Assembly: GCA_964016885.1 (NCBI GenBank)
Contig: OZ024746.1
Location: forward strand, 46,748,001-46,812,000
Length of the DNA: 64,000 bases
Source of the DNA: Eledone cirrhosa
Lineage: Eukaryota
Direction: 5' to 3'
Shown: positions 44,625-49,700 of the stretch, piece after piece
How positions within the stretch are numbered: position 1 is the first letter of the stretch
Layout of the letters: each line of letters starts with the position of its first letter
Program-made: the position numbers and the translations under genes
The notes under the pieces: model-generated
What the model was told of the DNA's origin: nothing
The model's database searches: none
The model's input: the letters and a program-made list of their open reading frames with translations, nothing else

Positions 44625-44666
<42 letters not shown>

Positions 44667-44694
44667 AATATCTATCTATCTATCTATCTATCTA

Positions 44695-45905
44695 AGGACA
44701 TCACCTTCATTCAGAAGGATAGACTCTACGGGAGTCTATCCATTCTCATGAAGGACAGGGACACAGCAGTGAAACTGTCCATCAAACCAATCGCATCCAC
44801 CGCATACACCTTCTACCCTACGTACATGGGTAGAAGAACACAACAAATAAAAATCCACACCATCCTGCCGATTATGGACATATGGTGGGTTTTGACAGGT
44901 TTTCTGGACCTGGAGGATGACATGCTGGTGTCCATGGGAAAGGCATCGGGTGACGCGTTCAGTGGAACGAGCCTCGAACTTGTAGTTCAAATGAGGCCCG
45001 AAAGGATCGCCCAGATCCCTGAACGCGTCATACTGGATGATCTAACCTTCATCAACATTACCGTTGAGGGTAGACGGCCCTCGTGTTACCTCTGCGGAAC
45101 CAGAGGTCACCTGAGGGCTGTCTGTCCCCAACTTAATAAGAAAACCCCAATCCTGCCTCCACCACCAACAACTGCACAACCAACACAATCACCACAACTA
45201 CCACTACAAAAACAACCACCACAGCTCAAACCAAAACAAAACAATGTCCAACCCATCCCCTCCACTCAAAAAACAAAAACAATTTCCAAAACACCCGTAC
45301 CGCAAACACAACCCGAAAATATACCCCTCCCCTCCAACGCGGAAGATGACCCTAGTTCGTCGTCAGACGAGGAGGAGCACTTCCACACAATCAAAAGAAA
45401 AAAAAGAAAACACACCTCAGACACACAAATGAAAAAAACCCCTCCCCAAAACATAACACTGACACCAACACAAAAGAGCTCACAACAACAGCAAACAAAA
45501 AACACCACACAAAAACAAAAACATGCATACACATACATAAATACAAGAAACAAAAAACTGTTAAACATTGTGTACAACAACAATCTAATAAAAACACAAG
45601 GGCCTAACTTCACCCAGGCAGGGGATTTCCCCCACCTCAAAATGATTAAGGCCCCACAGGACACCTATAAAACTTTAAAAAACAATTTTAAAGAGGACGT
45701 GGGTCCCCCCTGCGTCGGGCCCATTAACCGCGTCCTCCTAAAAAACGATCCCACCCCCTCCCCAAACACCCACACAACTCCAAGCTCCCCAACCACACAA
45801 CACACTGATGCCCCCACACTTCCACAAACCACCACCCCACCCAACAACCCATCCCCCACCCTAATGGAAATTGTGCAGCCCGATACCCGGGACGCAGAGA
45901 GGTAA
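44695..45905 (+). CDS. ORF1 (gag-like, CCHC zinc knuckle), N-terminally truncated
   Basis: EGRRPSCYLCGTRGHLRAVCP, then a Pro/Gln/Thr-rich region and a basic KRKKRK stretch. No native start codon; the frame opens in the ATCT tract. Confidence 0.85.
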
Positions 45906-45929
45906 GTGCCTTTTCTCTTCACCACCAAC

Positions 45930-48900: not shown

Positions 48901-49367
48901 AAAGGCTCTACAGACACGGGCGCCCGGGTAGGGACCCCGCCAAAAAGATCTGTCCCAGATGCGTGTGCGACGAGGAAACCGTTGCACACGCATTGGTACA
49001 CTGCTCGGGCGCAGCCGATCTGTGGGGCTATGTCGAAAAACTGCTGTCAAGGGTGGGACCGATCCGGTTGACCACCGAGTCTATTGTAATGATCAAGCCG
49101 CCTCCCCCCTTCAAAGATGAAGCAGAGGCGGTGTTTCTGTGCGTAATAGCCATGGCGAAAGAGGTTGTATGGTGGACGCGTCTGAAAGGACTGAGGTCAG
49201 GCACCTTTCTCTCTGGCCAACAACTGGTCCGTTTCTTCCGATATCATTTCGGAAGAAGGATCAGGATGGAGAGAGAGGTGCTGCACCCCAGCCGTTTCTA
49301 TGAAAGATGGGTGACAGTGGCGAGAATGGCCCGTGTGAATGGGCCTTCACTCTACATCAGACTATAG
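45930..49367 (+). CDS. ORF2: APE endonuclease, reverse transcriptase and C-terminal zinc finger (~1145 aa)
   Basis: LNARGL, ICEAR, VGDWN, YLDRFLV, SDHKLV; PGLDGLPYE, FRPITLLN, LDQSKAFDRVDH, RQGCPLS, YADDV; CPRC...ETVAHALVHC. The frame is uninterrupted. Confidence 0.96.
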   Translation: MAMLRVGCLNARGLGSTWKQAMLLNDLRSQRIDVMVICEARISNVRQLAPTFDDFEMHASLCQPGGGGGVVVLLQKHLGLATQMVHMDPEGRLVVLDLGSGKGGAFRLVAAYGPFGSMRPDFFHRLETFLGTSRSLLLVGDWNGILDARWDYVGACPDREGCNSLKGLIGRFDLADRYRLDFPTAPTWTWANRSGSSRSYLDRFLVRIKDKDFLSCPKMRMVGYSDHKLVTCMVNLDRTHRQGPGYWKLNLSLPASRAYRNRISTLVKERLTGAIVNSRWWVSLKREIRVVSIEFSKVLAADRNRKERELIDRVEEAIRSGDVARVLASRTALSQFFDAKHEGCVVRSKIRALGNEGTKAVSWARVTEANSGTKSTIRSLRDLDGRAILEPKQMCEAFQRHFARLFGRGGEPVGNVDFGPYLAGLPRHSDREAKSCEEPISAAEIEDVLSQCGKRKSPGLDGLPYELYLAMLDLFPDLLEAVYCNWQQNGRIPCTVTKGVVTLVRKDENKGDEISNFRPITLLNTELQILAKVLAKRLALVVGNLVGDAQTCAIPSRSIHDNLHLMRYIIERVGNEPGFGGALINLDQSKAFDRVDHGYLDAVLAAAGFGPVFRGWITAMHSSRICSRVKVNGYLSEPFKIARSIRQGCPLSSLLYVLTLEPLLRKLELLQGIPLEPGLRKAVSAYADDVTVMVSTASEIEAVGTLLEEYEKFTGAKLNRDKSIGLQLGTWRGRPMPSDGVVGRWTEGPVKLLGVWFGPDLQVEKNWAEVTNRVFALTQKWASCKLSLKGRAEVANTYIASVIYYRLTVVPCPRETLTKMERALFQFLWKRRAPMVRRSICCQHPSKRGLGMPWLMMRKHALRLRHLYVFLTGQPVWASFVRRTFPRLVSLTELQSWVKQRPRKLGAWHTECAQALTALWQADPVISGDSTATFYRGLVRSRCDDALGEALDMEEDELASLFGRTFSPGPMDNFQKSLAWQCYRGALPVRERLYRHGRPGRDPAKKICPRCVCDEETVAHALVHCSGAADLWGYVEKLLSRVGPIRLTTESIVMIKPPPPFKDEAEAVFLCVIAMAKEVVWWTRLKGLRSGTFLSGQQLVRFFRYHFGRRIRMEREVLHPSRFYERWVTVARMARVNGPSLYIRL

Positions 49368-49628
49368 GTGAGGAAGATGAAAGACCAAGGGAGCACCCCT
49401 TCTCTGTGCTCCCGAGGAGAAGGGTTGCACACTTTTTTCGGGGGTGTGTGCGACCCCCCAAGGCGCCTCCTCTCTATTGAGGATTTTGTTAAAAATTTTA
49501 TTTTTTGTGATATCTTATTTTATTTTTATATTTTGTTATTGCCTCCTCCTTATTGAGGACGCCTTTTTGTGTAAACTCCCCCCTTTGTACTTGTCCCACT
49601 TTTGATGCCCTAGTGGCAAATAAAAGAA

Positions 49629-49700
<72 letters not shown>

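Follow-up and report, generated by a model that had tools for sequence, protein, structure and literature searches.

A Tx1-like LINE inserted in an (ATCT)n microsatellite of Eledone cirrhosa, with a possible RNA-carried target preference

A 5'-truncated LINE flanked by ATCT repeats

The window examined here is a 64,000-nt stretch of the Eledone cirrhosa genome (assembly GCA_964016885.1, contig OZ024746.1, positions 46,748,001 to 46,812,000 of the forward strand), and it contains a single copy of a long interspersed nuclear element (LINE) at window positions 44695-49628. An earlier note on this DNA had described a young Tx1-clade LINE with an intact second open reading frame (ORF2), bordered at both ends by about 17-18 ATCT units and apparently targeted to (ATCT)n/(GATA)n through its APE endonuclease domain. 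The features of the element and of the adjoining repeats are listed below.

44626-44665 (+), left target tract (ATCT)10, upstream of the element; the sequence before the tract is unique and unlike the element's 3' end
44666-44693 (+), AAAT interruption followed by (ATCT)6 (44670-44693), adjoining the 5' junction
44694-45905 (+), ORF1 remnant of 403 codons that starts within the first RNA-binding region (ORF list and tblastn to the sister ORF1s)
44695-49628 (+), APE-type LINE, 5'-truncated, 4,934 bp, with ends set by the repeat boundaries (+/-1-3 nt)
44704-44754 (+), strong hairpin in ORF1, 10 nt inside the 5' junction (z -5.96, 0/200 shuffles)
45081-45131 (+), CCHC zinc knuckle of ORF1, below the Pfam cut-off in the window copy
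45930-46640 (+), APE endonuclease, with the catalytic N, E, Y, D-x-N, D and D-H positions of the human L1 endonuclease present
45930-49367 (+), ORF2, 1,145 aa, from ATG 45930 to TAG 49367, with no frameshift and no internal stop
47463-48194 (+), reverse transcriptase (RT) core with YADD (RVT_1, E 5e-26)
48951-49004 (+), C-terminal C-X2-C-X8-H-X4-C motif (zf-RVT, E 1e-5, just under the cut-off)
49368-49628 (+), 3' untranslated region (UTR), 261 nt, read from the sequence
49606-49624 (+), terminal 4-bp stem with a CUAGU loop and AATAAA directly after it (stem z only -1.2)
49629-49700 (+), right tract, a perfect (ATCT)18 (repeat listing)
49701-49732 (+), CTAAAT and then (AT)n, read from the sequence

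Several statements of the earlier note are borne out by these features. ORF2 is uninterrupted, the GC content of the element (0.528) is far above that of its 5-kb flanks (0.218 and 0.207), and there is no poly(A) tail: only AGAA stands between the AATAAA at 49619-49624 and the repeat, which places the signal 4 nt from the element end. The flanking repeats are also the sole long ATCT tracts of the window, the only ATCT/AGAT tracts of at least 3 units being those beside the LINE, and the five other runs have 2 units each. The description of 17-18 units at both ends fits the right side, which has 18 perfect units, but not the left, which reads (ATCT)10-AAAT-(ATCT)6.

The note had listed no ORF1 and thus overlooked the remnant at 44694-45905. 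This remnant aligns from residue 10-12 onward with the ORF1s of a sister lineage described below (tblastn E ~1e-11), which run 120-150 residues further upstream and are preceded by a 5' UTR; what is missing from the window copy is about 120-150 N-terminal ORF1 codons plus the 5' UTR, ~0.65-0.8 kb in total. Because its ORF1 is truncated at the 5' end, the window copy is not full-length. RNA-binding domains together with a CCHC knuckle are typical of the ORF1s of Tx1 elements, and this combination is present here, zf-CCHC being matched by 6/6 aligned ORF1s. The Atlas look-alikes of ORF1 belong to CCHC and ZCCHC3-RBD clusters (0.88-0.92) and serve as a lead only; a word-based search for ORF1 homologues returned nothing, and the sister ORF1s came from the genome scan instead. 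The right arm of the hairpin at 44704-44754 contains the first remaining ATG (44748).

ORF2 shares the frame of ORF1, with one TAA between them, and has Pfam matches to Exo_endo_phos, RVT_1 and zf-RVT. The ORF1 stop codon lies within a perfect splice-donor-like AG/GTAAGT (45897-45908, plus strand), with ORF2 following 24 nt on, and this sequence could bear on how ORF2 is expressed. In the endonuclease, the bB6-bB5 loop has 9 residues, the same length as in human L1 and in the element's four closest relatives.

Classification, relatives and age

ORF2 combines an APE endonuclease, an RT and a C-terminal CCHC motif with no RNase H, as in the L1 group, and its RT is nearer to L1 (E 1e-45) than to R2 (E 1e-18 or weaker). 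Human L1 matches ORF2 with 159 bits over residues 7-855. A broader genome scan yielded 50 loci, comprising 41 of the sister lineage (from one record), eight distant loci and the locus L048, a Keno-like APE element (L048:30-4243) that lies in the U2 gene of a U2-U1-5S rRNA cluster; its record carries the title of an Anaerolineae metagenome-assembled genome (MAG). Over comparable stretches, ORF2 scores 232 bits with this Keno-like element (query 429-863), 147 with human L1 (373-856), 145 with an algal element and 85 with a plant element. L048 is therefore the best target-labelled relative, at an RT identity of 34%. In Keno, the APE-RT element is followed by U2 lacking its 5' part (PMC4640811), and L048 has the same layout with a 5'-clipped U2; it differs from the element lineage in having a poly(A) run after AATAAA, where that lineage has none.

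In a quick RT tree, the element groups with three close proteins (SH-aLRT 99), and the sister of this group is a larger clade with a cuttlefish protein (joint SH-aLRT 100). This tree had L048 as its one target-labelled anchor, no vertebrate L1 and 7/9 of L048 and the distant loci; it gave no resolution at deep nodes and did not join L048 to the element lineage with support. The assignment to the Tx1 clade in the earlier note holds at the level of the L1/Tx1 group, where sequence similarity favours Tx1 over L1.

By protein, the closest species-named eukaryotic relative is from Argonauta hians (62%), followed by one from Acanthosepion pharaonis (48%), and the best matches reach 79%. These relatives by themselves would point to a cephalopod host, probably an octopod. 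One ORF2 fragment that is 62% identical (P0179) is named as from a Herbaspirillum MAG, a record that is most likely host contamination. The endonucleases of the element's subclade are 61-65% identical to each other and 34-40% identical to those of the sister lineage. A scan of bacterial and archaeal genomes with the element's own subclade gave 23 pattern matches and no relatives, and an Atlas search with ORF2 returned no taxa and no useful names. With Rfam, positions 43600-51000 gave 23 matches, none at the gathering score, and thus no sign of the U2 snRNA gene expected at a Keno-type site.

The copy is young in the sense of its unbroken ORFs, as had been claimed: from 4,644 nt of unbroken reading frame, neutral change since insertion is below 1.6% (stops only) or below 0.6% (with indels). 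The word intact needs more care. The reading frame of ORF2 is open, but it deviates at 33/440 columns (7.5%) in which four or more close relatives are unanimous; five relatives scored in the same way deviate at 1.1-6.5%. The activity of ORF2 is for this reason not assured.

Insertion into a pre-existing repeat

The left ATCT tract adjoins the truncation point inside the ORF1 coding sequence, and the single copy (1/1) thus has the repeat at a 5' junction produced by truncation. Because the tract abuts a 5' truncation within ORF1, it is target DNA and not a tail; the repeat predates the insertion, as the earlier reading of the site required, and the tract that received the element already had 10 or more ATCT units. 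Before the insertion, the site was a compound microsatellite, (ATCT)n followed by (AT)n. The left target-site duplication should lie within 44666-44693, where the pure repeat hides its length, and the right tract consists of the target duplication and leftover target, perhaps together with RNA-templated units. The 9-mer TCTAAATAT occurs at 44663 and again at 49700, two of the five sites that it has on the plus strand of the window. The duplication can be read in two ways, as pure repeat of ~16-19 bp or as a sequence ending in TCTAAATAT.

Other origins of the left tract were considered and rejected. An upstream LINE copy did not supply it as a tail, since the preceding DNA is unlike the element's 3' end. 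Nor is it the tail of the upstream short interspersed nuclear element (SINE)-like repeat, since 0/10 other copies examined of that repeat end in ATCT arrays and the two are separated by 91 bp of unrelated sequence.

With the element removed, ATCT/AGAT tracts make up 136 of 58,866 bp (0.23%) of the window, and perfect microsatellites of any kind make up 25.5%. A chance insertion is unlikely because ATCT tracts take so small a share of the remaining window. The view that the ATCT tract was hit by chance, by a non-specific or microsatellite-tolerant family, and that the copy was noticed for this very reason, draws on the fact that a quarter of the window is microsatellite, on the absence of a common target at the junctions of the sister lineage, and on the many draws available, O. 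vulgaris having 80 L1-Tx1 families, 13 of them with 421 recent near-full-length insertions (PMC13282606). Against it, ATCT contributes only 136 of the 15,014 bp of microsatellite sequence. When the likelihood of the observed site was assumed to be ~0.7 under targeting and 0.002-0.003 under chance, preference was favoured by about 4-5 to 1 even with an assumed prior of 2% for an ATCT preference. We consider chance landing quite unlikely, and some preference of this element for ATCT, with one copy examined, probable; the GATA specificity of a whole family, as put forward in the earlier note, is on this basis a candidate trait.

Junctions of the sister lineage

The sister lineage (L001-L040 and L043, on contigs CAXXMW010000002-18) has RTs 49-53% identical to that of the element. 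The CAXXMW01 record is titled a bacterial MAG; its DNA is evidently eukaryotic and encodes LINEs. These LINEs stand in long head-to-tail arrays with a unit of ~6.4-6.9 kb, in which ORF2 is near-identical, ORF1 and the 5' UTR are of several types, and the junction spacers are specific to the array. The junction counts leave out L048 and the eight distant loci, as well as three sister ORF2 ends that are cut off by locus edges. Among the 43 distinct 3' junctions, from 16 contigs, all 43 end at AATAAA and none has poly(A); a short repeat of any kind occurs within 60 nt in 1/43.

Each sister 3' variant has its own recurring sequence of 7-17 nt downstream. Leaving L001 aside, seven array variants have endonucleases with 90-96% identity to one another and with the same target-probing loop (one substitution in L005), whereas identity over the 19 nt that follow AATAAA is 21-58%, against a mean of 40 and a maximum of 68 for shuffles. 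Across 42 junctions, the spacer goes with the upstream 3' end: one spacer stands before three 5' types and another before two, and the three 5' types behind the one spacer include a 5'-truncated copy that starts inside ORF1. In this grouping, greedy clustering misplaced L025, which by eye belongs to the L021 group, and merged the 3' end of L029 with that of L020. At the only array end seen (L024:1001), one spacer stands before the first array copy, after unique DNA. Irregular extra bases are found at the 5' junctions of L003, L011 and L036, which look like separate integrations. A hairpin common to the sister junctions is not general, as z is below -2 in only 3/11. One sister spacer starts with TATCT and matches a repeat of the window at 14/16 positions, which is within chance and was set aside.

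These junctions also bear on a further explanation, in which the family carries an (ATCT)n tail, a short ATCT match served as the site, and slippage, in the course of integration or later, lengthened the left tract; the duplication would then stop at TCTAAATAT, with the inner (ATCT)6 an addition at the 5' junction. The presence of this 9-mer at both tract ends, the extra target-templated bases at the 5' junctions of L003, L011 and L036, and two-unit ATCT seeds within TA arrays are all in keeping with it. Set against these are the ten units that still lie outside the putative duplication, the five occurrences of the 9-mer in the window, the youth of the copy, which leaves little time for much expansion, and the sister junctions themselves, of which 42/43 lack a repeat tail and 0/43 have an ATCT tail. 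We regard this explanation as very unlikely.

Possible routes to target choice

It seems to us an even call that the element is a cephalopod Tx1-like LINE that inserted recently into (ATCT)n by target-primed reverse transcription, and did so by a preference inherited through its RNA. The anatomy, the truncation, the position of the tracts, the missing poly(A) and the terminal AATAAA are observed, and from them we infer the remaining steps. Cleavage of mRNA 10-30 nt past AAUAAA is an established processing rule. With the polyadenylation signal at the element's very end, cleavage downstream would leave one to six AUCU units of the donor flank in the mRNA. The ORF2 protein would nick the AGAT strand with loose specificity, and a nick would become productive at places where base pairing joins its released (AGAT)n end to the (AUCU)n of the RNA. 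Copying would begin inside the repeat, so poly(A) would not be copied. In the window copy, it would have ended ~0.7 kb early, and a staggered second nick would have duplicated ~16-19 bp of repeat. Every new copy would thereby regain a downstream (ATCT)n, and the preference would be inherited via the RNA, the endonuclease helping without dictating. A donor in unique DNA would re-insert at its own site and form arrays, and a donor in (ATCT)n could reach all such tracts. The RNA route draws support from the uncoupling of endonuclease and junction sequence among the sister elements. Pairing of 3' RNA with the target has been reported for R1Bm, SART1 and RTE elements (PMC7265360; PMC6007223).

Alternatively, the APE domain itself could read and nick (AGAT)n, in the style proposed for Kibi, Koshi and the crocodilian Tx1 elements, with RNA pairing a helper at most. 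The positional evidence (the flanking tracts and their 0.23% share of the window) serves this reading equally well, the Tx1L endonuclease nicks its own target almost exclusively (PMC1950540), and the element's subclade has a distinct endonuclease type (61-65% identity within it, 34-40% to the sister lineage). The near-identical sister endonucleases at unrelated junction sequences speak against it and weaken the claim of the earlier note that the APE domain sets the target. The loop of 9 residues, as in the promiscuous human L1 and unlike the 11 residues in Tx1L and TRAS1 (PMC1950540), points the same way; it would fit loose nicking and proves nothing. The mechanism is moreover called believed and poorly understood in PMC3812793. 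We consider this classical control by the endonuclease rather unlikely. The two routes are not exclusive, and the claim of targeting is carried by both jointly.

Several points weigh against an RNA-inherited preference. It is built on one copy, with no further locus of the element's subclade found in the bacterial and archaeal genomes scanned. None of the 43 sister 3' junctions has ATCT repeats. The sister endonucleases are 38-40% identical to that of the element and their loop is longer, so their behaviour may not transfer; the sister contigs may represent few independent loci, and recombination starting from single founders could account for the growth of the arrays. In one spacer group, the distal half also changes with the 5' type that follows it, so some of this half may belong to the 5' end of the next copy. 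The element's 3' end does not resemble the sister 3' ends significantly (9-63/300 shuffles score equally). Finally, peptides from read-through into ATCT were found in 0/175 and 0/248 fetched proteins, a weak test since predicted proteins start at Met.

In a broader form, which we hold to be doubtful, cephalopod Tx1-like LINEs in general would choose their target by RNA: the end signal would capture 10-25 nt of downstream DNA as a guide, and microsatellite specificity would be acquired and reprogrammable. A founder in unique DNA would re-insert at its own duplicated site and build head-to-tail arrays, as in the sister lineage, and a founder in a microsatellite would gain genome-wide specificity for that repeat, here (GATA)n, with a single loosely specific enzyme throughout.

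Other features of the window

A SINE-like dispersed family has about a dozen copies in the window, at 2421-2552 (-), 2969-3079, 3737-3893 (-), 10364-10513 (-), 12030-12177, 15907-16064, 22526-22681 (-), 23380-23580, 27401-27611 (-), 27850-28181, 41398-41438 (-) and 44376-44534. Several of their tails share with the 3' ends of the sister LINEs a C-rich stretch and GGCCTTGTGCC; the best pairs of SINE tail and sister 3' end are equalled in 0-1/300 shuffles, for tails picked after the motif was seen. This resemblance suggests that the window SINEs may have been mobilised by the Tx1-like lineage. A match of the element's own 3' end to these tails was rejected, as there is no BLAST match and only a short loop motif is common.

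A Penelope-like element lies at 34164-35990 (-), in which an RT (E 5e-5) precedes a GIY-YIG stretch (E 1.5e-4) and the 5' end is lost in a TA array. A second, broken Penelope-like remnant was recognised by eye at 17998-19058 (-) from an RDD motif and a GIY-YIG-like tail, adjoining a TA array; Pfam gave no supporting match for this interval. Two similar degenerate reading frames ~400 bp apart (14711-15064 and 15124-15384) represent a local duplication. The window further contains a TA array of 5.7 kb (52264-57982) and a 200-base N gap (58166-58365).

Relation to known elements and significance

The microsatellite targets reported for Tx1 elements are (TC)n for Kibi, (TTC)n for Koshi and (TTCC)n/(TTTC)n for crocodilian Tx1 (PMC4494074; PMC3812793), and other clades are reported at ACAY, AC, TAA and TG repeats (PMC4494074; PMC3812793; PMC4640811). 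The element resembles Kibi, Koshi and the crocodilian elements (Tx1-1_Crp group) as an APE-type, Tx1-like LINE within a pyrimidine-rich microsatellite. It differs from them in its ATCT unit and in its invertebrate, cephalopod-like lineage, and it is known from one copy rather than a family census; PMC4494074 calls a family specific when more than 20% of its copies have one and the same repeat beside them. Neither GATA nor ATCT appears as a string in the main text of that paper. In the literature searched, which did not extend to a comparison with Repbase or Dfam, we found no GATA-targeting Tx1 and no account of the sister arrays, a weak indication that (GATA)n is new as a Tx1 target.

In O. 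vulgaris, L1-Tx1 elements are abundant and recently active, with a mean near-full-length copy of ~5.4 kb, and it is nothing unusual for octopus to have intact Tx1-class copies, 13 families accounting for 421 recent near-full-length insertions (PMC13282606). The element's named relatives, in Argonauta hians and Acanthosepion pharaonis, place it beside these cephalopod L1-Tx1 families (a RepeatMasker class), for which the portions of PMC13282606 and PMC8967140 consulted contain no target analysis. The element shares with human LINE-1 the domain order and the endonuclease loop length. It differs in lacking the 3' poly(A) tail of mammalian-type L1, in not lying at a TT/AAAA site and in its ORF1 with RNA recognition motif (RRM) and CCHC, and human LINE-1 is less similar to it than the Keno-like L048. 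With R1Bm, SART1 and RTE, it would share a 3' RNA whose match to the target aids or steers priming; those elements are of other clades, and their pairing refines a site chosen by the endonuclease or spans few bases, in contrast to the main heritable determinant proposed here.

Should the novelty be confined to the target, the list of microsatellite-targeting Tx1 elements would gain (GATA)n and a mollusc, a modest and useful addition. If read-through RNA does set the target, this would address how APE elements gain microsatellite targets and switch them often, and one rule would also account for the tandem arrays of the sister lineage, whose near-identical enzymes and differing junctions allow testing. 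The element would then represent a two-ORF retrotransposon that may be redirected by 15-20 nt of RNA.

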